Below are positions 16,489 through 56,940 of a stretch of 64,000 nucleotides of DNA, piece after piece. The position numbers were made by a program, and so were the translations under genes. The notes beneath the pieces were generated by a model. The model saw only the letters and a list, made by a program, of their open reading frames with translations. It searched no databases and was not told the DNA's origin. Source of the DNA: Candidatus Gallimonas merdigallinarum (GTDB lineage: Bacteria > Bacillota > Clostridia > Christensenellales > Borkfalkiaceae); contig CAJFLU010000007.1 in the NCBI GenBank assembly GCA_904390485.1, positions 5,009-69,008 on the forward strand. Reading direction: 5' to 3'. Position 1 is the stretch's first letter; each line of letters begins with the position of its first letter.

Positions 16489-16496
16489 GGCAGAAG

Positions 16497-35818: not shown

Positions 35819-36694
35819 GTGAATAAGTTGATATTCGATTTTAATGACAGCAAGTGCGAATTGGAAGTTTCACGGGTCGGGCAGGAGTATTGCCTGCCCC
35901 GAAAGTTGCATGAAAAACGGAAGGCGAGAAAGTACTCTTTGCACTGCATTTTTTACGGCTACGGCACGTTGATTAAAAACGGGAAAGAAATCAGCTTGAC
36001 GAAAGGCAATATGTTTTTGCTTTACGAAAACGAGGAACAAGAATACTTTCCCGATCCGATGGCACCTTGGGCTTATTATTGGATTGATTTCATCGGCGAA
36101 GGCGTGGAAAAAGTGCTTGCCGCTTGCGGGTTTTCAAGAGAAAAACCCTATATTTATTTAGGTGATAATGCCAATAATATATACAATCTTTTTCGGTCGC
36201 TTGCGGAAGAGTACGACGGCAGCTCATTGAATTCGCTCAGTTGTATGGGGTATACGCTCTTATTGTTTCAGAACCTGATCCAATATTGTAATCAATATGA
36301 AAAAAGGTTTACCGTAAAATCGGCGCGGTTCAAAGTCTTTCGGGATATTCTCATCTTTATCAATAATAATTACCGCATGAATTTTACGCTCGACGAAATC
36401 GCTGAAAAAATGAACGTTACCAAAAAGCAGCTTATTACGATGTTTAACGATTTTGCGGACATGACTCCCGTCAATTATATCAACCGTTTCCGCATATCCA
36501 CTGCGTGCGTGATACTGTCGGAATCTTCTGTAGGGATCAAAGCCGTTTCCCAAATGGTGGGGATCGAAGATGAAGCATATTTTACGAGAATGTTTACGAA
36601 ATGGAAGGGGATGAGTCCGCGCGAATATCAAAAGGCGCAGGTTTGCGAAGATCCCTATCAATGGTTAAAGGAAAAAAATCTTGATTTCTGTTGA
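35819..36694 (+). CDS. AraC-family transcriptional regulator (cupin sensor + HTH_18)
   Basis: GTG start after GAGGGAGG. C-terminal FTLDEIAEKMNVTKKQL ... YFTRMFTKWKGMSPREY. Confidence 0.85.
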   Translation: MNKLIFDFNDSKCELEVSRVGQEYCLPRKLHEKRKARKYSLHCIFYGYGTLIKNGKEISLTKGNMFLLYENEEQEYFPDPMAPWAYYWIDFIGEGVEKVLAACGFSREKPYIYLGDNANNIYNLFRSLAEEYDGSSLNSLSCMGYTLLLFQNLIQYCNQYEKRFTVKSARFKVFRDILIFINNNYRMNFTLDEIAEKMNVTKKQLITMFNDFADMTPVNYINRFRISTACVILSESSVGIKAVSQMVGIEDEAYFTRMFTKWKGMSPREYQKAQVCEDPYQWLKEKNLDFC

Positions 36695-36739
36695 GGCGGC
36701 TCGGCGGAATTCGGGAAATAAATATGTTAAGGAGAAGTT

Positions 36740-38524
36740 ATGAAGAAGTCAATGAAGCTTGCGGCGGTCGCGCTTGGTGCGTGCATGCTGCTGCCGTTCG
36801 CGGCGTGCGGAGACGACGTTCCGGAGGGTTCGACGGAAATTTCGTTCTGGTACGACACGACGATGTCGCAAAACAGGTATTACGAGGAGCTTGCCCGCAC
36901 CTACAACGAGGGGCAAGGGAAAATCGACGGCGTTTATGTCCGTCCCGAGCTGACGGGCGGAATCAGTAAAGGGGCGCGTCCCTATCTTACCAAGGATTCC
37001 CCCAACGTCATGACGATCGACGAGACGGTGTTCAAGGATTTTGCAATCGACGGATTGTATACCGATTTAACGGAATATTACGAAAACGACAAAGCGTTCT
37101 ACAACGAAAACGACGTTCCCGCAGGGCTTGCGAACCGCAACCGTTTCACGCGCAATACGGGCGGCGTTTCATATGCGGGCGAAGGACAGCAGCTCGTGGG
37201 ACTTCCGTTCGGCGCGACGCCGTACGTCGTGCTTTATAATAAAAAAGCGTTCAGCGATTATAAAATCAATATCGTTTCCTGCGAGGAGAAAAAGCTGAAA
37301 ACGCAGTATCCTTCTTTACAGCCGCACGGCTATGCGGAATACCTCAATTCGCCCTTCGAGGGGGCGGAAGCCTCAACCAATCTTGCGGGAGAGACGGTGT
37401 ACAAGGTGTTTAACAACCGCATTCCCATGAACTGGGAGGAAATGCGCTATCTTTCAAAATGCTTCACCAAGACGAAGGATAACGGCAGCGGCGGCACGGT
37501 CGGTTATAATCCTTCCTCGCCCACGGCGTACGGGTACGTCACCGAGTGGTGGTTCAACTACGCCTGGACGGTCGGCGGCGACTGCGTGGGATACAACGGC
37601 GAAAAGTACGAGCTTACGCTCGGCGACAAGACGCCGAACTACCTTGTAACCGCAAAGGACGGCGTGACCGTAAACAACGTTCACTATGCGGCAGGCGAGA
37701 CGTTGCGCTACGAAGATAAAGTAAAGCTCACTTCGAAGGATGGGCTCTACGAATTGCCTTCTACCTATACGGCGATTGCGGAGATCAACCGTTTCCCTAT
37801 ACCGGAAGGTAAATCTTACGACGACGGCGTACCCGGTTACGGCATTTCTTATCCCGATTCTACCGACCGCGTTACGGCGTTTACTTCCGAACTTGTCGCA
37901 ATGGCGACGCTCGGTCCCGTTACGCTTGCCGAGCTTGACAGAAATATGCGCGGCAACTACGATATCGCGCCCTGTCAGCAGTATCGGCTGTATAAGGACG
38001 GAAGCGTCTATTATAACGGGGAAAAGAACTTTAAGAACGAATATCTTAAAGTCATCGGAAAAGACGGCTACACGGGCGAGCTTGCCGTTGTCGGCGACAC
38101 GCCCGTGACGGGAAATATCGCCGCCTGCGCGGAGTCGCCTTCGCTCGTCGTGCCCAAAAATTCCGATCCCGAAAAACACGAGGCGAGCTGGAAGTTTATC
38201 CGCTGGGCGGCAGGTCCCGACGGGCAGAAGATCCTTGCCCAGACGGGCATTGTCCCCAATCAGCAGAGCGTAGCTCTTTCCGACGATTACCTGAAAACGC
38301 GCACCGACATCAACTTATATGCGCGTTCGCTGACCGCGACGATCGCCGATATCGGCGACTGGGCGTATTTCCAGAACGGCGATTGGGTAAAGGGCTGGTC
38401 GGGCGCCTTCAACGACGACGTCCGTTTCGGAAACATGAAATTCGCGGACTTTCTGACCGATAAAAAATCTGCGGCAGAGACGGCGATCAACGGCATGAAG
38501 ATTGTGATAAAGGGAAGATATTAA
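36740..38524 (+). CDS. ABC transporter sugar-binding lipoprotein (family 1 SBP, large variant)
   Basis: Lipobox PFAAC. Followed by two MalF/MalG-type permease genes. Confidence 0.8.
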   Translation: MKKSMKLAAVALGACMLLPFAACGDDVPEGSTEISFWYDTTMSQNRYYEELARTYNEGQGKIDGVYVRPELTGGISKGARPYLTKDSPNVMTIDETVFKDFAIDGLYTDLTEYYENDKAFYNENDVPAGLANRNRFTRNTGGVSYAGEGQQLVGLPFGATPYVVLYNKKAFSDYKINIVSCEEKKLKTQYPSLQPHGYAEYLNSPFEGAEASTNLAGETVYKVFNNRIPMNWEEMRYLSKCFTKTKDNGSGGTVGYNPSSPTAYGYVTEWWFNYAWTVGGDCVGYNGEKYELTLGDKTPNYLVTAKDGVTVNNVHYAAGETLRYEDKVKLTSKDGLYELPSTYTAIAEINRFPIPEGKSYDDGVPGYGISYPDSTDRVTAFTSELVAMATLGPVTLAELDRNMRGNYDIAPCQQYRLYKDGSVYYNGEKNFKNEYLKVIGKDGYTGELAVVGDTPVTGNIAACAESPSLVVPKNSDPEKHEASWKFIRWAAGPDGQKILAQTGIVPNQQSVALSDDYLKTRTDINLYARSLTATIADIGDWAYFQNGDWVKGWSGAFNDDVRFGNMKFADFLTDKKSAAETAINGMKIVIKGRY

Positions 38525-39516
38525 TGGAAAAGAGTGAAGAAGGCGTAAAAGCGGCTGCGGCGGAGGAAAAATCCGAAGCCAAAAAGCCGCTGCGCAAAAA
38601 GACAAAGTGGACGAAGGAAAGCGTCGTCGGTCTCGTGATTCTTTTGATCCCGCTCGTCGGCTATCTGATTTTCAGCGGCTTTCCCGTTGTCATTTCCTTC
38701 ATCATTCAGTTCGCCGATATGGATCGTTTCGATCTCGGAACGCTCAAATGGAACAATTTTGCGAATTTTTCCGCAGTGTTCACGGACGGGAGATTCTGGC
38801 ATTCGATCGGGATCACCTTCTGGCTGCTTGCGACGCAGATCGTGTCGCTTCTGATCGCGCTGTTGATGGCGGCGCTCCTGTCGCGCGACGTAAAGGGATC
38901 GAAGATATTCCAGATACTTTATTTTGTGCCGTATATTTGTTCGACGATCGCTATTTCCGTCATGTGGATGTGGATTTTCGACGGCAGTCTGCAAGCGGAC
39001 GGCGTTACGCGCGGAGGGGTGCTCAACAGCATTCTCGGCACGAATATCAACTGGCTGGATAATCCGGACAATCCGGGAACGCTCACCTGGGCGATCTTCA
39101 TTTCGATCGTATGGCGCGCGCCCGGATACGGTATCGTCATGTATATCGCGGCGTTCAAGGCGGTCAATCCCGCCCTACACGAGGCGGCTCAGCTCGACGG
39201 AGCAAACGCATTTCAGCGTTTTATCCACGTCACGCTTCCGGGGATTGCTCCCACGACGCTCTATCTTGCTATGGCGGGCGTGACTGCGGGTATGGGGATA
39301 TTCGGCGAAGCGACGATCATGGCGCCGATCAACTGGGATCAGGTTGCGGGAAGGGACGACATGGGACTGACCGCCATGTACTATATCTATCTCGAAGGGG
39401 TGAAGTCGGCGCGCATGCCGACGGCGGCGGTTATGAGTTGGTTTATGTTTATCATTACCTTTATTCCGTCGTTCCTGCTGTTACGCTGGCGGAATAAAAA
39501 GGAGGAAGCGTTATGA
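38524..39516 (+). CDS. Carbohydrate ABC transporter permease (MalF-like)
   Basis: Six TM segments, EAA-loop region HEAAQLDGANAFQRFIHVTLP. Confidence 0.85.
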   Translation: MEKSEEGVKAAAAEEKSEAKKPLRKKTKWTKESVVGLVILLIPLVGYLIFSGFPVVISFIIQFADMDRFDLGTLKWNNFANFSAVFTDGRFWHSIGITFWLLATQIVSLLIALLMAALLSRDVKGSKIFQILYFVPYICSTIAISVMWMWIFDGSLQADGVTRGGVLNSILGTNINWLDNPDNPGTLTWAIFISIVWRAPGYGIVMYIAAFKAVNPALHEAAQLDGANAFQRFIHVTLPGIAPTTLYLAMAGVTAGMGIFGEATIMAPINWDQVAGRDDMGLTAMYYIYLEGVKSARMPTAAVMSWFMFIITFIPSFLLLRWRNKKEEAL

Positions 39517-40403
39517 GAAACGAAAAAACTTCCTCGAAACGCAGAACGAAACTGATTGCCGATATCGTCACTTATATCGGATTGGCAATTTATTTCCTGA
39601 TTCTCGTTTTGCCGTTTATTATCATTATTATCACTTCGTTTGCTTCCGACTACGAGATTTCGCACAGCATCGGATTCGTATGGGCGCCGAAGTTTTCTAC
39701 CGAAGGGTACGAGGTGCTGTTCAAAAACGATCCGTATGCGGTCGGCGGAGTGCCGTCCATCTTGCGCGGATTTTTGAATACGCTTTGGATGACGACCATC
39801 CCTACGGTGGTGGGACTGCTCGTTTCGGGTGCGGCGGCGTATGTTTACGCCAAAGTGAAAGTGCCGGGGAAAAACATTCTGTTTATGATCGAAATCGCGA
39901 CCATGAGTATTCCGCTCGGCGCGTTCGGCATGGTGAGCTATTTGTTCTATTCGGCAATCGGCTGGCAAAAGAGCATTCTGCCGCTATTTATTCCGGGAAT
40001 GTTCGGAAGTGCGGGAACGATTTTCTTTTTGAGAATGTATTTCGAGGGGATCAACAAAGAAATCGTGGAGGCGGCTAAAATCGACGGCGTCGGTACGATC
40101 GGAATTTACTTCCGCATGATGATCCCGCTTTCGATTCCCGCGTTTTTAGCGCAATTCATCTTTGCGTTTGTGGGCGGCTACAACGATTATCAGGGACCGC
40201 TATTATATCTCGTCGGCAATAAATCTATGTGGACGTTGCAGCTTTCCATGTCGCAGATCGTTTCGTTCGTCGGTTCGGAGGGCGGTTACAAAAACGTGCA
40301 GTGCGCTTCTGCGCTCGTCGGGCTTCTTCCCATGCTCCTGCTGTATTGCTTCGTGCAGAAGTTCTTCATTGCGGGAATCGCGGTAGGCGGCGGAAAAGAA
40401 TAA
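39513..40403 (+). CDS. Carbohydrate ABC transporter permease (MalG-like)
   Basis: EAA-loop VEAAKIDGVGTIGIYFRMMIP. 4-nt overlap with the upstream permease gene. Confidence 0.85.
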   Translation: MRNEKTSSKRRTKLIADIVTYIGLAIYFLILVLPFIIIIITSFASDYEISHSIGFVWAPKFSTEGYEVLFKNDPYAVGGVPSILRGFLNTLWMTTIPTVVGLLVSGAAAYVYAKVKVPGKNILFMIEIATMSIPLGAFGMVSYLFYSAIGWQKSILPLFIPGMFGSAGTIFFLRMYFEGINKEIVEAAKIDGVGTIGIYFRMMIPLSIPAFLAQFIFAFVGGYNDYQGPLLYLVGNKSMWTLQLSMSQIVSFVGSEGGYKNVQCASALVGLLPMLLLYCFVQKFFIAGIAVGGGKE

Positions 40404-40419
40404 AAACAAGGAGAAAACT

Positions 40420-42285
40420 ATGAGGAAAATAACAAAAACAGTTTGTATCGCGCTCACGGGCTGTCTTGCCGCGGCGGCGCTTGCGGGCTGCGGGTCGGAA
40501 ACAAAAACCGTGCTCGAACTGCCATATTACGACGGCACGGAATACACGAGCGAGCTTCACGACGTTCCCGAATACAACCGCGAGCTGTGGCGTTCCAACG
40601 TAAATGCAGCGCGCATCATGGAGCTTGCCGATCCGCAGGTTTTCGACAATACCTCGCGCGACGGATACTACTACATCTATGCGACAAACGATATGACGAC
40701 CTCCCGCACGAAGGACTTTATCGAGTGGGAATTCATGGGCACGATTTTGGAAACGCCGAGCGGTTGGGCAGACCGGTGGGCTCCCGAAGTAATCTACGAC
40801 GAGGAAACGGAAAAGTACTTGTACTTTTTCAGCGCGACCGCGCAATCGGGTGCGTCCTGCGTGTTATATCTTGCAACTTCGGATCGTCCTTACGGGCCAT
40901 TCGAGCTCGTGGACTTTTCGGACGCGGATAGCTGTTTCGGCGCAGAGAACGTGCATACGTACTCCGACAATGATTCGCCGTTGACGAAGGACGATTTTCA
41001 GAACGCTTTCGACAAATACACTTATTTTGATCCCGTCAAATTCGGCGCGGTGTTGAATCAAAAATACGGAACGTCGATTTCGACGACGCATATTCCCACG
41101 ATCGATCCGCACCCGTTTATCGTTCCCGAAACGGACGAGGCGCACGGGGGCGAAAAGTATCTCTACGTTTCGCTTGACGATCCCTATTATTCGGGATTGG
41201 ATCGCGGAATCTTGGCTATTCGATGCGATAACTGGTTCAAGCCCGATTATTCCACGGCAGAGGTGGTAACGCGCGTGGGTTATTCGACGATAGAGGATTA
41301 TAATAGGGCGAAAGCCGGAGAAGAAGTGAAGACGTTATGGTTCGAGCTGGCGGGTACGGCGCTCGTCAACGAGGGACCCGAAGCTTATTATCATAACGGG
41401 AAATATTATCTCACGCTCTCCTATTGCGGATACGGTGATCCCGGATACGGCGTCGTGCAGGCGGTCGGCGATTCGCCGCTCGGACCTTTCCGTAAACTCA
41501 CCGAAGCAGAAAACGGCGTGCTCTTAAGCTACGATGCAGGCGGAAACACTAAGGCTTCGGGAACGGGACACCATTCTTTCTTTGAAATCGGCGACAAGTT
41601 GTATATTGCTTATCACCGCCATTCGGTATACGGTACGACGGACGGCGGAAGAGAGCTTGCCTTAGACGAGATAAAATGGTTGAAAACCGAGGATATCGAC
41701 GGAAACGAGATCGAGGTCATGTACGTGAACGGACCGACCGTGACCGTACAACCCAGATTCGATAACGAAGCGGAATACAAAAACATTGCAGAGCAGGGAA
41801 CGGTAAAGCTGGAAAAGGGCAAGTTTGCTAACGGCTCTTCCGCCGAGTATATGAATGACGGATTGCTTTCGATGAATACTGTCGTCAATCAGGACTTTGT
41901 AAACGCACACGTGAAGGAAACGCAGATTACTCAAACGAGCACGTTCTCTATCACGTTCAACGAACTGAAAACCGTGCGCGGATTTATGGTTTACGACTCT
42001 AAGCTGAAAGAAGAAGTATTCCGTAAGATCAAGAATATCGAATTTATCGGCGAGGAGAACGGACAGGAAATCACTTATTACATTGCCGAATTAAACCTCG
42101 ACGAGCGCTCGAATATCGTCATCAGCAGTTTCGACGGTTCGGTGCGCAACACGGTACGCGGCGGCGGAGTGTATGCGGAATTCGATGCAATCAAGGTAAA
42201 GCAGATCAAATTCACGGTGGAAGTGCCCGAAAATCAAACGCAGGTCGGCATTGCCGAGATCGCCGTGCTCGGCAAGGTGCAATAA
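40420..42285 (+). CDS. Lipoprotein glycoside hydrolase family 43 with C-terminal discoidin/CBM32-like module
   Basis: Lipobox LAGC. GH43 blocks ADPQVF, WAPEVIYD, IDPHPF, NEGPEAYYHNGKYYL. C-terminal F5/8-type-C-like 150 aa. Confidence 0.8.
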   Translation: MRKITKTVCIALTGCLAAAALAGCGSETKTVLELPYYDGTEYTSELHDVPEYNRELWRSNVNAARIMELADPQVFDNTSRDGYYYIYATNDMTTSRTKDFIEWEFMGTILETPSGWADRWAPEVIYDEETEKYLYFFSATAQSGASCVLYLATSDRPYGPFELVDFSDADSCFGAENVHTYSDNDSPLTKDDFQNAFDKYTYFDPVKFGAVLNQKYGTSISTTHIPTIDPHPFIVPETDEAHGGEKYLYVSLDDPYYSGLDRGILAIRCDNWFKPDYSTAEVVTRVGYSTIEDYNRAKAGEEVKTLWFELAGTALVNEGPEAYYHNGKYYLTLSYCGYGDPGYGVVQAVGDSPLGPFRKLTEAENGVLLSYDAGGNTKASGTGHHSFFEIGDKLYIAYHRHSVYGTTDGGRELALDEIKWLKTEDIDGNEIEVMYVNGPTVTVQPRFDNEAEYKNIAEQGTVKLEKGKFANGSSAEYMNDGLLSMNTVVNQDFVNAHVKETQITQTSTFSITFNELKTVRGFMVYDSKLKEEVFRKIKNIEFIGEENGQEITYYIAELNLDERSNIVISSFDGSVRNTVRGGGVYAEFDAIKVKQIKFTVEVPENQTQVGIAEIAVLGKVQ

Positions 42286-42297
42286 GGAGGGAAGAAG

Positions 42298-43326
42298 ATG
42301 AAAAAGAAATTGCTTGCGGTTACGCTTTCGGCAATTACGCTTGCGGCGTCATGCGGAGCTTTGGCGGCGTGCAATAGCGAAACGCAGTACAACGTAATAA
42401 ATTCGAATCGGGAGTATACTTTCGAACGTTATAAAAAAAGTACTGCCGTTCTCGATGAAGAGGTCACGCTCGACGGCGAATTTACCGAAGATTTTTACAC
42501 GGGCAGAAATTGGTTTTACGGAAAAAAGCGTTTGGGTCAGGTCACGGCGGACGTAAGGCTAACGACTTACACGGGTAAAAACGGCATTTATCTTGCCGCG
42601 CACGTAGAGGAGAGCACGATCGTCTACTACAATGCTGCGAAAATCTCTTCGTGGAACAGCGGACTTGAATTTTATTTCGCGTTCGGCGAGGCAAATACGT
42701 GGCAGGACGGCTTTTACGAGATCACCGCAACGGCGGGCGAACAGCTCGACGTGCGCAGGGCGGAGATTTCGGCAGGCGGGAGTTTCCGCAACATGGCGCT
42801 TACAAGGGAAACCACGCCCCAAATTGCGGTAAAGCGCGTGGGCGATTTGTTGGGCGAAACGTGTCAGGAATATCAGTTCGAGATATTCTTGCCTTATTCG
42901 TTGTTTGGGCGGACGACCCGTCCCGACACAATGAATATCGACATCTGCCATCACGCCGCGACGAGCTCGGCGCTGAAAAACGAACGTGATCGCTACGACT
43001 TCGGCGGAAACGAGCTTTCTTTCTACGGATGGCTGAATCCGAAGGGGGGTTATACGTTCAATGCAAACGGCTTTGTAAGCAACAAGCTTGCGATTTCTGC
43101 GACGGGCGGCGGAACGGTTGCGGAGAGCCACAGAAACGAATATGCGGTGACGGGCGATATCGTTGAGTTTATCATAACGCCCGAGAGCGGTAAAAAACTT
43201 GCAAAAATCGAAGTGGAAAACGGCGGCGCAGTGCAGGATCTCACCGCTTCCGTGCAGAACGGAAAACTTTCGGTTGTGTGTAAAGGCGATATTTCGGTAA
43301 ACGCGATGTTTGCCGACGAAAATTAA
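42298..43326 (+). CDS. Lipoprotein, possible CBM9-like carbohydrate-binding protein with C-terminal InlB-B-repeat-like domain
   Basis: Lipobox LAAC. VTLDGEFTEDFYTG ... LEFYF pattern. The assignment is tentative. Confidence 0.45.
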   Translation: MKKKLLAVTLSAITLAASCGALAACNSETQYNVINSNREYTFERYKKSTAVLDEEVTLDGEFTEDFYTGRNWFYGKKRLGQVTADVRLTTYTGKNGIYLAAHVEESTIVYYNAAKISSWNSGLEFYFAFGEANTWQDGFYEITATAGEQLDVRRAEISAGGSFRNMALTRETTPQIAVKRVGDLLGETCQEYQFEIFLPYSLFGRTTRPDTMNIDICHHAATSSALKNERDRYDFGGNELSFYGWLNPKGGYTFNANGFVSNKLAISATGGGTVAESHRNEYAVTGDIVEFIITPESGKKLAKIEVENGGAVQDLTASVQNGKLSVVCKGDISVNAMFADEN

Positions 43327-46662: not shown

Positions 46663-46674
46663 AAGAGGTTTGCT

Positions 46675-48120: not shown

Positions 48121-48129
48121 GGGGCATTT

Positions 48130-49536
48130 ATGAAATTTTTGAAACGAATACTCGGTATATTTTTATCCGCGGTGTGTCTTCTTTGTTTTGCCGCCTGCGG
48201 TGAAAAAGACTACGGCACGCTAACGGTTGCCGATATCGAAAATTTAAAAATCGGTGAAACTCGGGAAATTTCCGCCGTGTTTTCCAACGGGGAATACGCT
48301 TCGGCAATCGAATACGAATTCAAGGGCAACGCAATCAAAATCGAGGAAGGAAAGGTGACCGCGCTTTCGGGCGGGCGGACGGTGCCCGTTACGGCAAAGA
48401 CAAAGCACCACGAAACGACGTTCACGGTAAAAACTTCTACCGAGCGGTACGATAACGGCACGCTTACGATCGAAAATATCGAAAATCTTCCCGTCGGGCA
48501 GAGGGTGCAAATAAACGCAGTGTTCACGCCGACTGGCGTGTACGAACCCATTTCTTATACGTTCGAAGGGGATGATATTGAAATTTTAAACGGATATATT
48601 ACGGCAATCGTTCCCGATAAAACGGTTGAAATTACCGCAAAAACGAGGTATCATGAAATTATGTTTACTGTAAAAACTGTGCGCCCTGTAACGCTTGTGC
48701 GCAACGTAACCGCATGGGTGGGATATCACGCCAGTCCGCTTCCCGACGTGTCTTATTTCAAAGAGGGCGAAGCGATTACGTGGAGCGGGGAAAATCCCGA
48801 AATCGCCGTGCTCGATAAGACGAAGCGCACCCTGTCTGCGGTTGCGGCGGGATCGTTTACGCTCACCGCGCAGACCGAGGGCTATTCCGAGATTTATAAT
48901 GTTACTGTAAAGTCCGTTTCGAAAACAGGCAAAAAATGGCAGCTCGATCAGGATAAAACGGATTATGCCAATCAAATGAAGAGCAAGTGGAACACCGACG
49001 GAAACGACGGAAAGACGACGCTGTTTATCGGCGATTCCTTCTTCGACGTGCGCTATTTCTGGACGAACTTTTACAGTTTGTACGCTGGGAAAGACGCGAT
49101 TTGTGCGGGGATCAGCGGGGCGACAACGTACGATTGGGAACAGTATGCAGAAACGTTTTTAAGGCAAACCGCACCGAAGAATCTTGTTGTAAATCTCGGC
49201 ACGAATAATTTTTACGACGATCACGATTCGTCGGAAACGGCAACCGAGAGTTTGCAGAGAATGTTCACGCTCATTCACAGCATTCTGCCCGATACGAAGA
49301 TTTATTACTTTGCCATTACACAGCGGAGCGATACCTCGTATAAAACGGGCGTGAGCGAAACGAACGCCGCCATGAAAGCCTGGTGTGAGGGATATTCCTT
49401 TATAACCTTCCTTGATACCGAACAGGCGTTGACGGTGGACACGCTTTTGTCGGACGGAATTCATCCCAAATTAGAGACTTACAATGTGTTTATGGGTGCG
49501 CTTGCACAGAGCAAAATAGAGATGGAAAATAAATAG
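48130..49536 (+). CDS. Lipoprotein: the same two Ig-like repeats + extra Ig-like domain + SGNH/GDSL hydrolase domain
   Basis: Lipobox FAAC. SGNH blocks LFIGDSF, GISGAT, LGTNN, SDGIHP. Confidence 0.75.
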   Translation: MKFLKRILGIFLSAVCLLCFAACGEKDYGTLTVADIENLKIGETREISAVFSNGEYASAIEYEFKGNAIKIEEGKVTALSGGRTVPVTAKTKHHETTFTVKTSTERYDNGTLTIENIENLPVGQRVQINAVFTPTGVYEPISYTFEGDDIEILNGYITAIVPDKTVEITAKTRYHEIMFTVKTVRPVTLVRNVTAWVGYHASPLPDVSYFKEGEAITWSGENPEIAVLDKTKRTLSAVAAGSFTLTAQTEGYSEIYNVTVKSVSKTGKKWQLDQDKTDYANQMKSKWNTDGNDGKTTLFIGDSFFDVRYFWTNFYSLYAGKDAICAGISGATTYDWEQYAETFLRQTAPKNLVVNLGTNNFYDDHDSSETATESLQRMFTLIHSILPDTKIYYFAITQRSDTSYKTGVSETNAAMKAWCEGYSFITFLDTEQALTVDTLLSDGIHPKLETYNVFMGALAQSKIEMENK

Positions 49537-49543
49537 AAATAAT

Positions 49544-51055
49544 ATGGGTTTGGTATTGGAAAAGACAAAGCTTCAAAAGAGCGAACAGAGAAGTTATTAT
49601 TGCACCTGGTTGGCGCAGAATTTTCTCGCGTCGGAAACGGGAGAAAAGCGTGCCGCCGTGCGCCCCGAATTTACGGGTGATCAGGGCGCAAACTGCGCAC
49701 GCGACAAGGTGAACGAACGCACAGTGTTTGGTAAGGGCGGCATGGCGCAAGTCAATGCGCGTGAAGATCTCTATCTCGTGCTCGACGACGGCTGGGACGT
49801 GCCGTTCGATTTTGATCCTTATGTACATAAGGATTACTTTGGCTCGCTCGAAGTGAATGAGCAGCGTTTTCCCTGTGCAAAGGGTAGCCCCGCGGAAAGG
49901 CTGAAAATACTCAACGAGCGAGCAAAGGGCTTGGGTTGGAAAGGAATCGGTATCTGGGTAGCGGCGCAAAAGTGCGGCAAGGATAATAATTCGCCCTTTT
50001 CCGAGGCGGACAAAGAATATTGGCGGGAGCGGATACTTTGGTGCAAACAGGCGGGCGTAACGTATTGGAAAGTGGATTGGGGAACGTTGGAACACGACAA
50101 TGCGTTTCGTAAGTTTTTAACCGATACTGCACGGGAGCTATATCCCGAGCTTACGATCGAACAGGCAATTTGCTGTCCGCCCGTCAACGGTGTGACCGAG
50201 CGGTTGCAGCGCGGAGAAGTAGGAAGATTTCAAGACGATGAAAAAATCAGCGGGCTTTCCAAGCAAGCCGTATCGTTCAGCGAAGTATTCCGCACGTACG
50301 ACGTAACGCCGCAGTTTTCCGTGGCGAGTACGTTGGACAGAGCCGCATATTTATTGTCGTATGCGAAGGGCTATTTGAACGTGGAGGACGAGTTGTACCT
50401 TGCGGCGGCTCTGGGCTGTCAGATGGGCATTATGCGTTCGGTCTACGGCAAGGGGTTGGACGATTGGGACGATAGTGACCGATTGCGCGAAGCGGACGCC
50501 GCGCTGTTCTGGCAGAGAATCGCGCCGCCGTTTGCAGGCGGAAGCGTGGAAATCAGCAAAGAAATTCTTACGGACGAGTGGACGTTTCAAGAAAACGAGT
50601 TTTGGTATCAACCGATAAACGGACGGACGATCCGTCAGGGCGCGCCCGCAGCCGTATCGCGCAACGCGCCGCTACCGGAAGTTTCGGCAGGACAAACGGG
50701 TGCAAAACCGTTCGTTGTCTGCGCGCTCAATCCGAACGGTGTGTATTCCGTCGCTGTGCTTCCCCGCACGTTGAACGGGAAGCGGGCTTACGTCGGGGGA
50801 GATATTATTTGCTCTTTGAAAAAGATGCCCGAAAAGATTGCCGTTTTCGGCTTTGCCGACAGTTTTGAATTTCAGTGGTACCAGGGCAAAGCGGTAAACC
50901 TTACGGCGGTAAGTATGCTCAGCGGGAGCGAAGTCGAGATTCCGCTTTCGGAAAAGGGCAACAGCTTTCAACTCGATGCGGACTTAATGAAAAAACTATG
51001 GAAAACCGACGATAAATCTGCCCCCGCGGTGTTGCTTACGCTACGCGGTAATTGA
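49544..51055 (+). CDS. Uncharacterised cytoplasmic protein, possibly a distant clan GH-D (GH27/36-like) TIM-barrel glycosidase
   Basis: LVLDDGWD and VTYWKVDWG resemble the DDGW and K-x-D motifs present in the neighbouring GH36 (DDGWFG, YVKWDMN). No signal peptide. Confidence 0.4.
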   Translation: MGLVLEKTKLQKSEQRSYYCTWLAQNFLASETGEKRAAVRPEFTGDQGANCARDKVNERTVFGKGGMAQVNAREDLYLVLDDGWDVPFDFDPYVHKDYFGSLEVNEQRFPCAKGSPAERLKILNERAKGLGWKGIGIWVAAQKCGKDNNSPFSEADKEYWRERILWCKQAGVTYWKVDWGTLEHDNAFRKFLTDTARELYPELTIEQAICCPPVNGVTERLQRGEVGRFQDDEKISGLSKQAVSFSEVFRTYDVTPQFSVASTLDRAAYLLSYAKGYLNVEDELYLAAALGCQMGIMRSVYGKGLDDWDDSDRLREADAALFWQRIAPPFAGGSVEISKEILTDEWTFQENEFWYQPINGRTIRQGAPAAVSRNAPLPEVSAGQTGAKPFVVCALNPNGVYSVAVLPRTLNGKRAYVGGDIICSLKKMPEKIAVFGFADSFEFQWYQGKAVNLTAVSMLSGSEVEIPLSEKGNSFQLDADLMKKLWKTDDKSAPAVLLTLRGN

Positions 51056-51083
51056 GCGGTCTTTATTACGGAAGGAGATAAAA

Positions 51084-53036
51084 GTGGATAAAACAATTTA
51101 TTTGGGTGCGGCGTACTATCCCGAACTGTGGGATGAGAGCGAAGTGGAAAAGGACATTGCCCGTTGCAAAGAGTTAGGCGTAAACTGTTTGCGCGTGGGC
51201 GAATTCGCATGGGGCAAAATGGAACCGAAAGAGGGAAAATACGATTTTGCTTGGCTTTTACGCGTGGTAGAAAAACTGCACGAAAACGGCATATATACCG
51301 TGATGTGCACGCCCACCTGTACGCCGCCGAGATGGATGCTGAACAAATACCCCGAAATGCGCAGAGTCATGCCCGATCTGATCAAATCGGACGTATCCTC
51401 ACGGTGTCACGTGTGCAAGTCGTCGCCCGTAGCGCGGGAGAAGAACAAACAAATCGTCACGCAAATGGCGAAGGTATTTGCGGGGCACAAGGGAATCATC
51501 GGTTGGCAGATCGACAACGAAATTTTCCCTTACGGCGACGGTTGTTTCTGCGAAAACTGTAAAAAGGGTTTCCGTTCGTACTTAAAAGAAAAATTCGGGT
51601 CGGAGAAAAAGCTGAATAAGGCATGGGGTATGGCGCGCTGGTCGCTTGAATACGATTCGTTTGAAGAGGTCGAACCGCCCTACCCCGCGCAGTGGCGGCA
51701 CCCTTCCTTACAAAAGGCATGGTGGGCTTATCAGTGCGGACTTATAAAATCTTTCATTGAAGAACAGGCGCAAATCTTACATAACTACGGTTGCGGGAAC
51801 GTCGGCACGGATATGATGGCGCAAAATTATTTGGACTATTATGCCGTGAACGAGAAATTAGACGTCGTACAGTACAATCATTACGATACGGCGGATCGGC
51901 TCTATACGAATGCCTTTGCATACGATTTTCTGCGTTGTGTAAAGGATAAACCGTTTTGGGTAACGGAGACGCAGGTCGGCTGGAACGGGAGCAATTATGC
52001 CGACTGCGGCTACCGCGCCGTCGGGGCTTGCTATGCAAATACCTGGCTGCCGATCGCAAAGGGCGCGGAGATGAATTTGTATTGGCTGTTCCGCACGCAT
52101 CCGAACGGGCATGAAATCGGGCACGGTGCGCTGTACTCTACGGCGGGCAGAAGCTACCGCGTAAGCGAAGAAGTGAAGAAGGCGGGCGAAGAATTTGTAA
52201 AATGCGAAAAATTCTTAACAGAAACAAAAATTGAAAGCAAAATTGCTTTGCACTATTCGGCGATGGCGATGAATTCGTTTTCCTTCGCGCCGCTCATCAA
52301 GGATTTTGACTACCGTCAAACAATCCTCGAAATATATCACGCGGCGTTGCGCCACTATAACGTAGACGTCATCGACACGCCGCATACGCTCGACGGATAC
52401 GAAGTGATTGTATCTCCTTTCCTTGCGTGTGCGGACGAAAACGGTTTTAAGGAACGTATCACCGAATGGGTAAAGCAGGGCGGCACGTGGATCGTAGGCC
52501 CGATGAGCGATATCATGGACGGCAACGTGAGCCGTTACGCGCACGCGCCGTACGGCTTTTTGGAAGAGCTTGCGGGGGTATATACGAAGTATCAGAAGCC
52601 CGTTGCAAACGACGTTTTCAAGGCGCAGTGGATGAACGACGGCGACTGTAAAATCGGCATGTGCTACGACGCATACGAGTGCTTAGAGGGGACGAAGAGC
52701 CTTGCTCACTATACGGCGGGCGAGTTCACGTCGCTCTCGGTGATTACCGAGCGGAACGTAGGAAAGGGAAAAATCATTCTCGTGGGAAGCGTTATTTCGG
52801 ACGGCGATTTACTGCGGCTTGTGGGCCGTGCGCCGATTGCGGAAGCAAGCGATAACGTTGTACTCGTAGAGCGGATCGGAGAAGAGCAGGGAATGATTGC
52901 CGTAGAAATCGAAAATAAGAGCGGATATCTAGTATTGGACGGAGAATATACCGATCTAATAACAGGAAAAAATTTGACGGGCAAAATCGAGGTTTCGCCC
53001 TATGAAGTTTTTGTATTGAAAAAAGGAAGTAAATAG
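51084..53036 (+). CDS. Glycoside hydrolase family 42 beta-galactosidase
   Basis: GAAYYPELW, LRVGEFAWGKMEP, GWQIDNE, Cys cluster C-x-C-x2-C, 650 aa. GTG start. Confidence 0.9.
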   Translation: MDKTIYLGAAYYPELWDESEVEKDIARCKELGVNCLRVGEFAWGKMEPKEGKYDFAWLLRVVEKLHENGIYTVMCTPTCTPPRWMLNKYPEMRRVMPDLIKSDVSSRCHVCKSSPVAREKNKQIVTQMAKVFAGHKGIIGWQIDNEIFPYGDGCFCENCKKGFRSYLKEKFGSEKKLNKAWGMARWSLEYDSFEEVEPPYPAQWRHPSLQKAWWAYQCGLIKSFIEEQAQILHNYGCGNVGTDMMAQNYLDYYAVNEKLDVVQYNHYDTADRLYTNAFAYDFLRCVKDKPFWVTETQVGWNGSNYADCGYRAVGACYANTWLPIAKGAEMNLYWLFRTHPNGHEIGHGALYSTAGRSYRVSEEVKKAGEEFVKCEKFLTETKIESKIALHYSAMAMNSFSFAPLIKDFDYRQTILEIYHAALRHYNVDVIDTPHTLDGYEVIVSPFLACADENGFKERITEWVKQGGTWIVGPMSDIMDGNVSRYAHAPYGFLEELAGVYTKYQKPVANDVFKAQWMNDGDCKIGMCYDAYECLEGTKSLAHYTAGEFTSLSVITERNVGKGKIILVGSVISDGDLLRLVGRAPIAEASDNVVLVERIGEEQGMIAVEIENKSGYLVLDGEYTDLITGKNLTGKIEVSPYEVFVLKKGSK

Positions 53037-53037
53037 T

Positions 53038-55194
53038 ATGATCAAAGCAAACGGAAAAACCTTTTTATTGCAGGGAAAAAATTACAGCTATGCGATGCAC
53101 GTGCTGGAATCGGGCTTTTTACAGCACTTGTATTACGGCGGAAAAATTACGGAAACCGATTTGGATTATTTAATCGAAATCGGCGATACCAATGCGCCGC
53201 ATATCGATATGAACATGGACATGGCGTTCGATAGAATGCTCTCCGAATACGGTTTTTACGCGCGCGGCGATTACAGGGAAGCGACCGCCGTCTTTGAGCG
53301 GAAAGACGGGGCAAGTATGTCGCGTCTGCGCTATCAAAGCTACCGTGTGGAAAAGGGCGCGCCGAACGTAAAGGGTATGCCGCACGTGCGCCAAGGGGAC
53401 GAGACGCTTGTCATTACCCTCAAAGACGATTTTTCCGATATCTCGGTGGATTTGTATTACACCGTTTGCGACAATTCGGACGTGCTTGTCCGCAGCTCGG
53501 TCATTCGCAACACGGGGCGCGAGTCGATCATGCTTAAAAAAGCGTTCTCCTTCCGCGCGCAGCTGCCAAACGGCAATTACCGCATGATGCGTCTTGCCGG
53601 CACTTGGGGACAGGAGCGCATTCCCGAAATTGCGCCTATCGCGCACGGAATTACCCGCTTGCAATCCATTCAAGGTTGTACTTCCCATAACACGAATTGT
53701 TTTATGGGCATTCTCAAAGAGGGCTGCACGGAGGATTCGGGCGAGTGCCTCGGCATACAGCTTATATACAGCGGCTCGTTTGCCTTAACGGCAGAGTGGT
53801 GCAAAAACGGTCCGCTCACGTTGCAGGGCGGCATCTGCGATACGGGCTTTTCATGGGAGCTGAACGGCGGAGAAGAATTCGTTACGCCGCAGGTCTTGCT
53901 CACCTATTCGGGCGAAGGAATCGGGGGCATGTCGCGGAGCATCCACGACTTTTTGCGCGAGCGCGTAATCAACCCCGCATACGTCTATAAGCGTCGCCCG
54001 ATCGTGGTGAATAACTGGGAGGCAACTTATTTCGATTTTAACGAAGAAAAGCTTTTCCCGATCATCGACGAAGCGGGAAAGCTCGGGATCGATACGTTTG
54101 TATTGGACGACGGCTGGTTCGGAAAACGCGACAGCGACTGGTCGGGACTTGGCGATTGGTTCGTGAACGAGAAAAAGCTGAAAGGCGGGTTAAAAACGAT
54201 TATCGACCGCTGTAAGAAGAACGGCTTAAAATTCGGCTTGTGGTTTGAGCCGGAGATGGTGAACGAGGACAGTGATTTATTCCGCACGCACCCTGATTGG
54301 GCGATCCATAAAGACGGGGTAGAGCCTTGCAGAAGCCGTCAACAGCTTGTATTGGATTTCACGCGCAAAGATGTAGTAGACTATATTTTCGGCGTCGTTT
54401 CCAAGGTGCTCAAAGAGAACGAAATTTCCTACGTGAAATGGGATATGAACCGCAATATTACCGAGGTGTATTCGGCTCAGCTTCCTGCGCACCGTCAGGG
54501 TGAGTTTATGCACCGCTATATTTTAGGCGTGTATGATTTGGCAGAGCGGCTGACTTCCGCATTCCCGAACGTATTTTTCGAAGGCTGTGCAGGCGGAGGC
54601 GGAAGATTCGACGCGGGTATGCTCTATTACTTTTCTCAGATTTGGACGAGCGACGACACCGACGGATTCGAGCGTACAAAGATCGAGTGGGGGACTTCTG
54701 TTTGCTATCCGCTGTCCGCCATGAGCTGTCACGTTTCCGTCTGCCCCAATCACCAAACGCAGAGAATCACTCCCTTTGAAACGCGCGGGAACGTAGCGAG
54801 CCTCGGCGCGTTCGGGTACGAGCTCGATCTTTCCAAGATGACGGAAGAGGAAAAGGCGCTCACCAAAGCGCAGATAGAAAGCTACAAGCGCACGAGTGAG
54901 CTGATTTTGAAAGGTGACTTGTACCGCTTGATGAATCCGCTTGAAAAGAACTATTTCTGTGTTATGGTCGTCAGCAAGGATAAGAGCGAGGCTTACGTTG
55001 TGGGAGAACGTATTCTGGGAATTCCATGCGACTATAATCAATACCTCTATCTGTGCGGCTTAGATGAGAACGCGCTCTACAAAATTGAGGAGCTGAACAT
55101 TACGGCAAGCGGTAAAGCGCTTCAAAACGCGGGCTTGCTTTTGCCGAAGCTTTCCGATTTCGGCAGTTGGGCGTGGCATCTGAAAAAAGTATAA
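53038..55194 (+). CDS. Glycoside hydrolase family 36 alpha-galactosidase
   Basis: NNWEATYFDF, FVLDDGWFGKRD, YVKWDMNR, CAGGGGRFD, WTSDDTD. Confidence 0.9.
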   Translation: MIKANGKTFLLQGKNYSYAMHVLESGFLQHLYYGGKITETDLDYLIEIGDTNAPHIDMNMDMAFDRMLSEYGFYARGDYREATAVFERKDGASMSRLRYQSYRVEKGAPNVKGMPHVRQGDETLVITLKDDFSDISVDLYYTVCDNSDVLVRSSVIRNTGRESIMLKKAFSFRAQLPNGNYRMMRLAGTWGQERIPEIAPIAHGITRLQSIQGCTSHNTNCFMGILKEGCTEDSGECLGIQLIYSGSFALTAEWCKNGPLTLQGGICDTGFSWELNGGEEFVTPQVLLTYSGEGIGGMSRSIHDFLRERVINPAYVYKRRPIVVNNWEATYFDFNEEKLFPIIDEAGKLGIDTFVLDDGWFGKRDSDWSGLGDWFVNEKKLKGGLKTIIDRCKKNGLKFGLWFEPEMVNEDSDLFRTHPDWAIHKDGVEPCRSRQQLVLDFTRKDVVDYIFGVVSKVLKENEISYVKWDMNRNITEVYSAQLPAHRQGEFMHRYILGVYDLAERLTSAFPNVFFEGCAGGGGRFDAGMLYYFSQIWTSDDTDGFERTKIEWGTSVCYPLSAMSCHVSVCPNHQTQRITPFETRGNVASLGAFGYELDLSKMTEEEKALTKAQIESYKRTSELILKGDLYRLMNPLEKNYFCVMVVSKDKSEAYVVGERILGIPCDYNQYLYLCGLDENALYKIEELNITASGKALQNAGLLLPKLSDFGSWAWHLKKV

Positions 55195-55206
55195 ACGGAG
55201 AGTTAT

Positions 55207-56940
55207 ATGAAAAAAACAGAATATCCGCGTCCTCAATTTCAAAGAGAAGAGTGGTTGTCCCTCAACGGCGAATGGGAGTTTGCCTACGACGATTCCGACG
55301 AGGGAATTAAAAACGGGTATGATACGGGAACGGTTTTACTCCCCCTTAAAATTAACGTTCCGTTTACCTATCAGTACGAAGCAAGCGGTATCGGTGATAC
55401 CGCTTGCCACGAACGTGTATGGTACAGAAGAACATTCAAAGTAAAGCCCAATAAACGTGTATTATTGTGCTTTAACGGCAGCGATTATATTACCGACGTA
55501 TGGGTGAACGGTAAACACGCTACAACGCACACGGGTGGGTTTGCGCCCTTTTCTTGCGATATAACCGATTATCTAAATGGGGAAGAAAACGTCCTCGTCG
55601 TACGGTGCTACGATAGTTTGGAAACAGCTGTTCCGCGCGGAAAGCAGAGCTGGAAGGCCGAACCGTTCGGTTGTTACTATGTGCCCAATACGGGTATCTG
55701 GCAGAGTGTTTGGCTGGACTTCTTCGGCACGGATTGTGTGGAAAGCTATACCTTACAATCAGATATAGACAATCGAGCAATCAGGGGTGAAATTCATACG
55801 CTGTACGGAAAGGCAGACGAGGCGGAAATCACTCTTTCTTTTCAAGGGAAGCTTTTACAAAAGCAGCGCATTGTGTTGCCGCAGAAACGCACAAGGTTTG
55901 CAATCGAGCTTGCAGACTGCGCATTCGATTTTAACGACATGCTTTGGTCGCCCGAAAAGCCAAATTTGATTTACGTGGATGTGGTGCTTTATGCAAACGG
56001 TGTGGAGTGCGACAAGGCGCATACCCGACTTGGAATGCGCAAAATTCATATCGACAAAGCGGGAAAAATCTGTCTGAATAACCGTCCGTATTTTCAACGG
56101 CTCATTCTTGATCAGGGCTATTGGGTGGAGAGCGGCTTAACACCGCCAAGTGCCGAGGCGCTCAAAAAGGATATTGAGCTTGCCAAAGCAATGGGATTTA
56201 ACGGCGCGCGAAAGCATCAGAAACTTGAAGATCCGTATTTTTACTATTATGCGGAAGAGCTAGGCTTCCTCACTTGGTGCGAAATGCCGAGCGCGTATAC
56301 GTTCTGCGTGGAAGAGGTCGCGGCAATTACAAACGAGTGGCAGGAGATTATCAAAGTTGCCAAAAATTTTACGAGCAATATTGTCTACGTTCCGCTCAAC
56401 GAAAGCTGGGGTGTGCGTGAGATCGGCGTAAACAAAGAGCAACAAGAGTTCGCGCGCAGTTTGTATCATTTAACCAAGTGTTTAGATTGCGAAAAGCTCA
56501 TTTCCACGAACGACGGATTCGAGAACGTCAATCCGACGGATATTGTTTCCATTCACGATTACGACATTGCCAAGGCGGAGCAGTTCCCCATAAAGTACAA
56601 AGCGGGGGATTATAACGGACTCTGTCCGCAGGGTTGGAAATTATTCGCCGAGGGCAATTCTTACGAGGGACAGCCCGTACTGTTCACAGAGTTTGGAGGC
56701 ATGATGCTCAAAGAACAAGGCGTCGAAGGCTGGGGCTATAACGGCTGTGAAGAGAATGCAGAATCCTTTTGCAAGCACCTCGAAGAGCTTGTTAAGGGCA
56801 TTGCACAAACGGAGTTTCAGGGCTTTTGTTATACGCAGTTGACCGACGTACAGCAAGAGGTGAACGGGCTTTTGCGTGCCGATCATACGCCAAAGTTTGA
56901 TTTGGCGAAGATAAAGAATTTAACAGAAAAAATCATATAA
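55207..56940 (+). CDS. Glycoside hydrolase family 2 enzyme (specificity not assignable)
   Basis: YPRPQFQREEWLSLNGEWEF, VWVNGKHATTHTGGFAPF, NGARKHQK, acid/base PLNESWG, ~577 aa short GH2 form. Confidence 0.8.
   Translation: MKKTEYPRPQFQREEWLSLNGEWEFAYDDSDEGIKNGYDTGTVLLPLKINVPFTYQYEASGIGDTACHERVWYRRTFKVKPNKRVLLCFNGSDYITDVWVNGKHATTHTGGFAPFSCDITDYLNGEENVLVVRCYDSLETAVPRGKQSWKAEPFGCYYVPNTGIWQSVWLDFFGTDCVESYTLQSDIDNRAIRGEIHTLYGKADEAEITLSFQGKLLQKQRIVLPQKRTRFAIELADCAFDFNDMLWSPEKPNLIYVDVVLYANGVECDKAHTRLGMRKIHIDKAGKICLNNRPYFQRLILDQGYWVESGLTPPSAEALKKDIELAKAMGFNGARKHQKLEDPYFYYYAEELGFLTWCEMPSAYTFCVEEVAAITNEWQEIIKVAKNFTSNIVYVPLNESWGVREIGVNKEQQEFARSLYHLTKCLDCEKLISTNDGFENVNPTDIVSIHDYDIAKAEQFPIKYKAGDYNGLCPQGWKLFAEGNSYEGQPVLFTEFGGMMLKEQGVEGWGYNGCEENAESFCKHLEELVKGIAQTEFQGFCYTQLTDVQQEVNGLLRADHTPKFDLAKIKNLTEKII

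Follow-up and report, generated by a model that had tools for sequence, protein, structure and literature searches.

Polysaccharide utilization loci (PULs) that move between genomes are well documented in Bacteroides but hardly in Gram-positive gut bacteria, in which fibre use is usually treated as a fixed trait of the species. A Gram-positive PUL (gpPUL) has been defined as an enzyme, a carbohydrate transporter and a transcriptional regulator encoded together (Sheridan et al. 2016, PMC5320581). The gpPULs of Roseburia and Eubacterium rectale are described as chromosomal in that paper, in which the words 'mobile' and 'integrase' are absent; the words 'carbohydrate' and 'sugar' are absent from a review of integrative and mobilizable elements (IMEs; PMC5704250). 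Here we analysed a window of 64,000 nucleotides from Candidatus Gallimonas merdigallinarum (assembly GCA_904390485.1, contig CAJFLU010000007.1, positions 5,009 to 69,008), in which a glycan operon lies within an element of 26,054 bp at window positions 34106-60159. This element is very probably a mobile IME carrying a gpPUL. Its 16 genes encode a DUF4143 ATPase, the 13 products of the glycan operon, a Mob_Pre relaxase and a tyrosine integrase, and the glycan block makes up 81% of its length. A first-pass annotation, made by a model from the nucleotide sequence, had proposed a PUL as the cargo of a mobilizable element, and this proposal is borne out by a 15-nt direct repeat, by junctions with a tRNA-Gln gene, by an empty site and by at least six unrelated flanks.

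Limits of the element and its integration sites

The element is bounded by the 15-nt sequence ATGACGGAGTCAGAG, of which the window holds two exact copies (34091-34105 and 60145-60159; 0 expected from 100 shuffles), and it interrupts an open reading frame (ORF) of the host. The features at its two ends are as follows.

34046-34105, forward strand: 5' part of a host ORF of 113 codons, split by the insertion and resumed at 60160-60441
34091-34105, forward strand: attL core ATGACGGAGTCAGAG, left copy of the direct repeat
34200-34223, forward strand: left-end CCCCACAA(A/T)TT repeats, candidate integrase arm sites
60006-60041, forward strand: right-end CCCCACA(A/T)TTT repeats, three copies, candidate arm sites
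60115-60159, reverse strand: 3' half of tRNA-Gln(CUG) borne by the element, 45 nt from anticodon loop to CCA; the last 15 nt (60145-60159) are the attR core
60160-60441, forward strand: 3' part of the host ORF

Joining both parts of the host ORF yielded an uninterrupted ORF of 113 aa, and the same ORF was intact in an empty-site contig (Logan contig L115). This contig is 98.7-98.9% identical to both window flanks over 9.3 kb, and the flanks join in it exactly at the 15-nt core. The CCCCACAA(A/T)TT motif is confined to the two element ends in the window, where it was matched exactly three times (0.06 expected). Upstream of the insertion lie gyrA, at a distance of about 4.6 kb, and beyond it gyrB, which makes the site chromosomal.

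Read as its reverse complement, the core ATGACGGAGTCAGAG is CTCTGACTCCGTCAT, the anticodon-loop region of tRNA-Gln. ARAGORN called no tRNA in the window; it called tRNA-Gln(ctg) in contigs L002, L010, L011, L013 and L033, where the 3' half consists of the same 45 nt as in the element. The right end of the element was fused to the 5' half of tRNA-Gln(ctg) in L002, L004/L010, L011, L013 and L033, and a displaced 3' half abutted the element in eight left-end loci. Because the junctions on both sides show the halves of this tRNA gene, tRNA-Gln is the canonical attB, with a duplication of 45 nt. The usual target of the integrase is the anticodon-loop region of tRNA-Gln(CUG), and the element supplies a replacement 3' half. 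The insertion in the window, also found in L001 and L007, is at a secondary site that has 15 nt in common with the tRNA-Gln target. A third site (contig ERZ1643251 NODE_719) has only CTGACT in common with it; this locates the crossover to the anticodon loop. The att sites documented are of three kinds, and in the predicted attP junction …GAATGACGGAGTCAGAG would be joined directly to GTTGTATTAAAACG….

Copies of the element in other contigs

The element recurred at 98-100% identity in at least six right-flank contexts showing no nucleotide homology with one another. Identical integrase, ATPase and 503-aa proteins (the last is treated with the cytoplasmic enzymes) were found on many metagenome contigs, and for the integrase the index of the contig collection lists 308 blocks with the identical protein. 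Since the same junctions recur in independent samples, chimeric assembly is unlikely. The left neighbours of the element were often other integrase-bearing elements, which indicates tandem accretion of elements at the tRNA gene.

Several copies were altered. Two full-length copies have diverged, L033 to 95.5% and L034 to 90.8% identity, and their identity is mosaic: the 503-aa protein is 85-89% identical, while its neighbours reach 96-100% in L033 and 92-97% in L034. L004 is without the SASA esterase gene, a loss attributable to recombination between the repeated 5' regions of the two esterase genes. In the window, these regions are repeated over 300 nt at 91% identity, with cross-alignments over 543 nt (46674-47216 and 48129-48671), and the repeat spans the signal peptide, the lipobox and a DUF5666-like module. 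In L038, the GDSL gene is reduced to its last ~93 nt, which are joined straight to the AraC gene on one side and lead into the 503-aa and GH42 genes on the other. L038 was considered as an ancestral core of the operon and rejected, since the retained 3' end of the GDSL gene marks it as a deletion derivative.

In L003, L005, L009, L012, L015 and L016, ~130 nt after the integrase stop codon, and in L014, homology to the element ended at ...AAACTGGCTG, with which the tRNA-Gln copy closes (its final 6 nt). Past this point a large serine recombinase gene followed, or in L014 a chloramphenicol acetyltransferase gene in its place. This suggests that a second family of mobile elements, of which one end was seen, has integrated at the acceptor-stem end of this tRNA gene.

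Backbone genes and transfer

Three genes make up the backbone of the element.

34276-35631, reverse strand: AAA_14/DUF4143 ATPase (Pfam, 4e-47 and 7e-23)
57255-58484, forward strand: Mob_Pre (MOBV-type) relaxase (Pfam Mob_Pre, 1.6e-24, matched from profile position 9)
58694-59989, forward strand: tyrosine integrase (Pfam Phage_int_SAM_3, Phage_int_M and Phage_integrase)

The element has the sequence characters of an IME, i.e. its own recombinase, att repeats with a target and an empty site, and a relaxase without a type IV secretion system (T4SS). No gene for a T4SS, a mating pore or a coupling protein was found by Pfam among the 16 genes. Because conjugation-pore genes are lacking, transfer would have to borrow the mating apparatus of a helper; the near-identical copies in unrelated contexts are the basis on which mobilisation by a helper is proposed. 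In every left-end locus, the DUF4143 ATPase gene accompanied the element. The listed relaxase ORF begins with GTG at 57276; an ATA codon at 57255, with AAGGAG upstream of it at ~57241, opens an in-frame stretch that encodes the conserved N-terminus of MOBV relaxases (ISYQVIRVQK). Either a non-canonical start or a change of the start codon might account for this.

The glycan operon

Between 35819 and 56940, 13 co-directional genes follow each other with gaps of -4 to 65 bp; the gene boundaries and the single co-directional block of the first-pass annotation match the ORF list exactly. The regulatory and transport features are listed here, the enzymes and surface proteins further below.

35699-35727, forward strand: sigma-70-like promoter upstream of the AraC gene, a consensus match only (TTGGCA-17-TATAAT, 11/12 matches)
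35819-36694, forward strand: AraC-family regulator (Pfam AraC_binding and HTH_18)
36740-38524, forward strand: lipoprotein solute-binding protein (SBP) of 594 aa (Pfam SBP_bac_8; signal peptide and FAAC)
38524-39516 and 39513-40403, forward strand: two ABC permeases (Pfam BPD_transp_1 twice)
57008-57050, forward strand: terminator-like hairpin and T-run closing the glycan operon (13-nt arms, 92% complementary, then TTTTTATGCTCTTTTTT)

The AraC gene lies 45 bp upstream of the SBP gene. Pfam agreed with the annotation of an AraC regulator, an SBP and two permeases lacking an ATPase gene: no ABC_tran match was obtained in the element, and a six-frame translation of the window contained a single LSGG[QE] match, at position 4372, outside the element and flanked by stop codons. 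ABC systems of the CUT1 type that lack their own ATPase are typical of gpPUL loci. With degrading enzymes, an SBP with two permeases and an AraC regulator in one locus, the operon contains all parts named in the definition of a gpPUL. The designation of the locus as 'complete' is unproven, as genes for an endo-acting enzyme, an ATPase and sugar catabolism are not present. None of the ten cargo proteins was named by NCBIfam above its cut-offs.

The cargo has a G+C content of 50.6%, the ATPase, AraC, Mob and Int genes have 41-44%, and the host flanks 60.6% and 64.0%. The compositional difference between cargo and backbone noted in the first pass thus holds at gene level. A stepwise assembly, which had been deduced from the AT-rich AraC gene, was not upheld: AraC homologues in other loci are also AT-richer than their neighbours (G+C 40.7% against 53-54% in L038, and 46% against 52-56% in L040), so this is a trait of the AraC lineage.

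Putative surface lipoproteins

Six products, including the SBP, open with a signal peptide ending in AAC or AGC followed by G or N, four of them with F-A-A-C; the earlier call of six lipobox proteins is thus repeated as a pattern reading. The other five are listed here.

40420-42285, forward strand: glycoside hydrolase (GH) family 43 lipoprotein with a C-terminal domain of ~200 aa lacking a family assignment (Pfam Glyco_hydro_43, 1e-28)
42298-43326, forward strand: 342-aa lipoprotein with a C-terminal InlB B-repeat-like domain (Flg_new_2, 3e-4, below the curated cut-off)
43370-46609, forward strand: 1079-aa lipoprotein with Cys-rich RYYR-CCHC-like modules, tandem ConA/LamG-like beta-sandwiches and B-repeats
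46675-48120, forward strand: SASA-family acetylesterase lipoprotein (Pfam SASA, 8e-20)
48130-49536, forward strand: GDSL/SGNH esterase lipoprotein (Pfam Lipase_GDSL_2, 4.5e-14)

The GH43 protein contains the catalytic motifs ADP and NEGPE, and its matches in the PDB included 4QQS (HoAraf43, an alpha-L-arabinofuranosidase of H. orenii), 3KST and 3QZ4 (BT3675, GH43_34). BT3675 is an arabinofuranosidase of subfamily GH43_34, which also holds enzymes acting on galactofuranose (Galf). In all, the GH43 protein had eight sequence matches in the PDB, and no galactanase is named among them. The protein had been annotated as GH43 with a carbohydrate-binding module (CBM) of family 32. The GH43 part was reproduced by Pfam and the PDB, while residues 425-621 gave no F5_F8_type_C (CBM32) match in Pfam at E<=5 but only DUF7402 at 0.056. 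By eye, the C-terminus ends in a discoidin-like ...IAEIAVLGK, and a galactose-binding-like fold is possible there.

The 342-aa protein had been called CBM9-like, a call that found no support: no CBM9 match was obtained in Pfam even at E<=5, and no significant match in the PDB (best E 0.25). BLASTP showed no relation between this protein and the 1079-aa protein, and on both products Pfam reported only the InlB B-repeat-like Flg_new_2. The 1079-aa protein is repetitive as described before, with three internal repeats, and its pieces gave no CBM32 or CBM9 match in the relaxed Pfam scan (E<=5). Its AlphaFold2 (AF2) model, of moderate confidence, shows lectin-like sandwiches and no catalytic fold, with neurexin LNS, laminin LG, BoNT Hc and the YwfG lectin as the top Foldseek matches; the protein is likely a glycan-binding scaffold. 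The Cys/His-rich modules in residues ~30-180 (43460-43900) resemble, at 35-40% identity, the N-terminal parts of many surface proteins of clostridia. The proteins sharing these RYYR-CCHC-like modules otherwise bear cohesin, LRR, Big_2 or SLH domains, so the module looks like a widely shuffled surface module.

Both esterases were recovered as predicted by Pfam. A PDB sequence search with the SASA esterase gave nothing significant.

Cytoplasmic enzymes

Four signal-less enzymes complete the operon.

49544-51055, forward strand: 503-aa protein with a GH27/GH31-like (clan GH-D-like) fold
51084-53036, forward strand: GH42 beta-galactosidase (Pfam Glyco_hydro_42, 5e-95; PDB 6LVW, 1.8e-68)
53038-55194, forward strand: GH36 alpha-galactosidase, AgaA-like (Pfam Melibiase, 4e-152; PDB 4FNR, 6e-192)
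55207-56940, forward strand: GH2 group III (GH2_19-like) enzyme (Pfam GH2 N-terminal domains)

The GH42 and GH36 assignments of the first-pass annotation stand, and the GH42 protein resembles characterised beta-galactosidases. For the GH2 protein, the family was confirmed, but a beta-galactosidase-type role was not. Its PDB matches were 7XYR (4.9e-91, residues 3-576), 7SF2 and 9J6N (3.7e-60), a Streptomyces beta-D-galactofuranosidase of GH2_18, while beta-glucuronidases (GUS) and beta-galactosidases matched at <=1e-22. 7XYR belongs to GH2_19, and the characterised GH2_19/group III members are alpha-L-arabinofuranosidases and beta-D-galactofuranosidases (PMC12243196). The protein shares with group III its closest relatives, a three-domain architecture of ~580-600 aa and the lack of a signal peptide. 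It keeps an NE acid/base (PLNESWG) and the nucleophile EFGG (FTEFGG) at corresponding positions; 7XYR itself has TV. The enzyme is thus probably a furanosidase and not of the LacZ or GUS type.

The 503-aa protein had been annotated as GH-D-like. Its fold agrees with this, while membership of GH27, GH31 or GH36 by sequence was not supported: no Pfam, NCBIfam or PDB sequence match was found, even with a profile of 67 sequences, and hhalign against the GH36 protein of the window gave only a local match at DDGW (prob 43%, E 2.4e-4). The AF2 model (pLDDT 91.8) shows a TIM barrel, (beta/alpha)8, with a C-terminal beta-sandwich, and Foldseek matched it to 1UAS (E 7e-10), GH31 glucosidase II, 3CC1, 4OGZ and MEL1, with TM-scores of only 0.3-0.5. 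Invariant motifs are DDGW, K176-V-D178-W and R250-x-Y-D253, in which D178 and D253 would suit as candidate catalytic Asp residues of the clan GH-D type. A profile search of 1.84 billion representatives yielded a closed set of 811 representatives, and members come from Clostridia, Verrucomicrobiota, Planctomycetota and a Parabacteroides (Bacteroidota). A literature search for a described new clan GH-D-like family matching this protein returned nothing relevant.

The closest paralogue of the 503-aa protein (84% identical) was found in another glycan locus (L028-L031, 1-11515), together with a 2013-aa protein, GH3, GH2 (73% identical to that of the window), GH78 rhamnosidase and GH36. This locus lies upstream of a gene order matching the host flank of the window (PHP, NlpC/P60, hydrolase, SecB, MatE), which indicates that relatives of the host own a chromosomal locus with the same trio of cytoplasmic enzymes.

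Proposed function and alternative explanations

Outside the cell, the lectin-like 1079-aa and 342-aa lipoproteins would, judging from their families, hold the glycan, and the GH43 lipoprotein of exo-furanosidase type and the two acetyl esterases would strip side groups at the surface. Oligosaccharides would be imported by the large SBP and the two permeases, powered by a shared chromosomal ATPase of the MsmX/MsmK type. The sharing of such an ATPase is established for CUT1 systems. In the cytoplasm, the GH36 alpha-galactosidase, the GH42 beta-galactosidase, the GH2 group III furanosidase and the GH-D-like enzyme would dismantle the oligosaccharides. The 503-aa protein might cut a linkage left uncut by the known enzymes of the locus, e.g. 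beta-L-Arap or alpha-Gal on arabinofuranose (Araf), as in gum arabic. The most likely substrate is acetylated oligosaccharides decorated with galactose (Gal) and Araf or Galf. The use of arabinogalactan or a galactan-type glycan, suggested in the first pass, is retained as one candidate: side chains of type II arabinogalactan or of a gum-arabic-like glycan are the leading single substrate, albeit a doubtful one, and no specific substrate deserves more confidence than this. As a whole, the explanation of the locus as an IME with an AraC-headed glycan operon working in this way is likely to be correct.

Several observations weigh against this explanation. The core of the empty site in L115 (5450-5470) reads ATGACGGCGGCAGAG and is off ATGACGGAGTCAGAG at 2 of 15 positions, and both junctions in the window are of the element version. 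As a simple crossover would leave one copy of the host type, either a strain polymorphism that created a secondary site or conversion after integration is needed. The intergenic regions of 335 bp and 209 bp showed neither a recognisable oriT consensus nor an excisionase gene, and no helper element was identified; excision, transfer, expression and substrate are all inferred. The six lipoproteins are putative, being recognised by sequence pattern alone, the AF2 model of the 1079-aa protein is of moderate confidence (pLDDT 66.6), and the GH2_19 placement comes from PDB relatives and motifs, not from dbCAN/CAZy subfamily HMMs. No endo-acting, backbone-cleaving enzyme was recognised among the cargo by Pfam, including the relaxed scan, or in the model of the 1079-aa protein, and the locus may therefore act only on oligosaccharides released by others. 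Classical larch-type arabinogalactan is not acetylated, so the acetyl esterases fit it poorly.

The operon could also be an ordinary chromosomal PUL of the lineage that lies beside an integrase and relaxase remnant and was not moved as a unit. Related cassettes do occur in metagenome-assembled genomes (MAGs) labelled Christensenellaceae, and L027/L032 (MAG MGBC162833) has no Mob or Int but contains the cargo as far as GH36, beginning at the latest with the second permease, at which the fetched locus starts. Cargo without integrase and relaxase, which the first-pass annotation had named as evidence against mobility, was found this once; L027, however, keeps a 234-nt remnant of GH2, which marks L027/L032 as a decayed, truncated copy of the element and not as an ancestral chromosomal locus. 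Moreover, the flanks are joined precisely at the 15-nt core in L115, the 26-kb unit from ATPase to tRNA half is found again, 98-100% identical, next to unrelated flanks and in att sites of three kinds, and the G+C content of the cargo is 10-13 points under that of the host flanks. Immobility of the operon is highly improbable on these grounds.

For the operon as cargo of a mobile IME, two other substrates were weighed against plant arabinogalactan. Galf-containing microbial glycans (fungal galactomannan, bacterial exopolysaccharide or capsule), which are often O-acetylated, would agree with the two acetyl esterases, with the occurrence of beta-D-galactofuranosidases in GH2 group III (9J6N) and of Galf-ases alongside Araf-ases in GH43_34, and with the lack of a named galactanase among the GH43 matches. 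Such a target is nevertheless quite unlikely, as GH36 and GH42 are classic partners in the use of plant galacto-oligosaccharides and the locus lacks a GH that would attack a mannan or glucan backbone; specificity for Araf or Galf is not separable from sequence here. The locus might instead scavenge mixed plant oligosaccharides, i.e. raffinose-family sugars and acetylated arabino- or galacto-substituted fragments from other degraders, and have no dedicated polysaccharide. The lack of an endo-acting enzyme, the exo-type families of all recognised GHs, the resemblance of the GH36 protein to AgaA (the raffinose/stachyose type) and the pairing of the front cassette with different downstream GH sets in other loci point in this direction, but six surface lipoproteins with a lectin-like scaffold of 1079 aa would be a heavy investment for simple oligosaccharides, and the 342-aa or the 1079-aa protein might hide an unrecognised endo-activity. 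Scavenging is accordingly rated as somewhat unlikely.

Related elements and cassettes

Gut metagenome contigs, some of them titled human gut, contain related elements, with integrases 74-78% and Mob proteins 50-52% identical, adjoining the same 3' half of tRNA-Gln. In L119 (600-7400; titled human gut) and L120 (400-7700), the integrase is 74-75% and the relaxase ~51% identical; the tRNA-Gln 3' half was matched in L120 and not in L119. The cargo of these two consists of restriction-modification and defence genes and no PUL, with two C5 methylases and a MutH-like nuclease, and a ResIII/PLD helicase-nuclease and a NERD protein. The backbone appears to be a platform on which cargo is swapped. More distant relatives bear other sugar genes (GH95, lacto-N-biose phosphorylase, FucI and GH78, or AraC with an SBP).

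The front cassette, i.e. AraC, SBP, two permeases, GH43, a protein of ~343 aa and one of ~1090 aa, is found again in L157/L158, ~45% identical and followed by another set of GH genes; a syntenic 344-aa gene there takes the position of the 342-aa gene. The cassettes of L157 (2867-21899) and L158 (1386-20401) lie directly beside a large serine recombinase gene, and that of L157 follows a truncated GH36 gene of another glycan locus. A more distant cassette in L040 (1-19344) adjoins genes for a Rep protein and a serine recombinase. Such PUL cassettes may thus also ride on serine-recombinase elements. We advance, as a tentative joint proposal, that Christensenellales-like gut Clostridia of rodents and other hosts routinely exchange whole glycan cassettes on small integrative elements of two or more kinds, among them tRNA-Gln IMEs and large-serine-recombinase elements, and that the 503-aa protein founds a new GH family of the clan GH-D type. 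If routine exchange is true, the diet niche of these Gram-positive bacteria would be horizontally traded, as in Bacteroides.

A second compositionally foreign region of the window, 1800-17550, is a surface-polysaccharide biosynthesis cluster with a G+C content of 37-49% in a chromosome of 55-65%. It encodes glycosyltransferases of families GT4 and GT2, an RmlA-like nucleotidyltransferase, RmlB/RmlD-like enzymes, a DegT aminotransferase, a FemAB/GNAT protein, a Polysacc_synt flippase and an epimerase.

Comparison with known systems

The element provides a cleanly delimited case: its empty site, its canonical tRNA target and secondary sites are documented, as are deletion variants and a decayed copy. 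It shows that 13 glycan genes can travel together on 26 kb of mobilizable DNA into unrelated genomic backgrounds. As a natural vehicle with its att site, it could serve for genetics in poorly tractable Clostridia, and the widespread GH-D-like-fold family without assignment and the lectin-like scaffold are targets for biochemistry.

The described Firmicutes IMEs with a tyrosine integrase and MobV relaxase (IMESag-rpsI, the Tn6215 type and IME_Sag2603_tRNAlys; PMC5704250) are alike in the single integrase, the Mob_Pre/MOBV relaxase and the absence of a T4SS, and also in integration into a tRNA gene with its 3' part restored by the element and in tandem arrays at the same tRNA. The present element differs from them in its cargo, a 21-kb glycan operon, and in its target, tRNA-Gln(CUG) with crossover in the anticodon loop and secondary sites in protein-coding genes.

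Like the gpPULs of Roseburia and E. rectale (PMC5320581), the operon combines AraC, an ABC importer and genes of GHs and carbohydrate esterases in one locus. Its enzyme set is, however, unlike that of the arabinogalactan loci Ros-5 and Eub-2, and it has lipoprotein-anchored surface proteins and an unassigned GH-D-like enzyme. The proposed logic is that of the Bifidobacterium longum system for gum arabic and type II arabinogalactan (GH39 GAfase, GH43_24 Bl1,3Gal, GH43_22/34 BlArafE; PMC8939339), i.e. surface trimming of the GH43 furanosidase type, import, and intracellular removal of alpha- and beta-galactosyl residues. Of the B. longum enzymes, the GH39 GAfase, the GH43_24 exo-beta-1,3-galactanase and GH30_5 were not detected here; conversely, the two acetyl esterases are absent from the B. 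longum system, and anchoring would be by a lipobox here and is by a C-terminal transmembrane segment there.

The PULs carried on integrative and conjugative elements (ICEs) of Bacteroides for porphyran, agarose and carrageenan (10.1101/2020.06.09.142968, PMC8845570) are alike in that a whole locus is the cargo, with short direct repeats and a syntenic empty site. The host here belongs to a Clostridia lineage of the Gram-positive type, transport is by ABC/SBP and not by SusC/D, and the vehicle is a 26-kb mobilizable element without conjugation genes, whereas those of Bacteroides are self-transmissible ICEs. A gpPUL on a small IME, documented in this way, is a new instance of the known mobile PULs and not a new principle.

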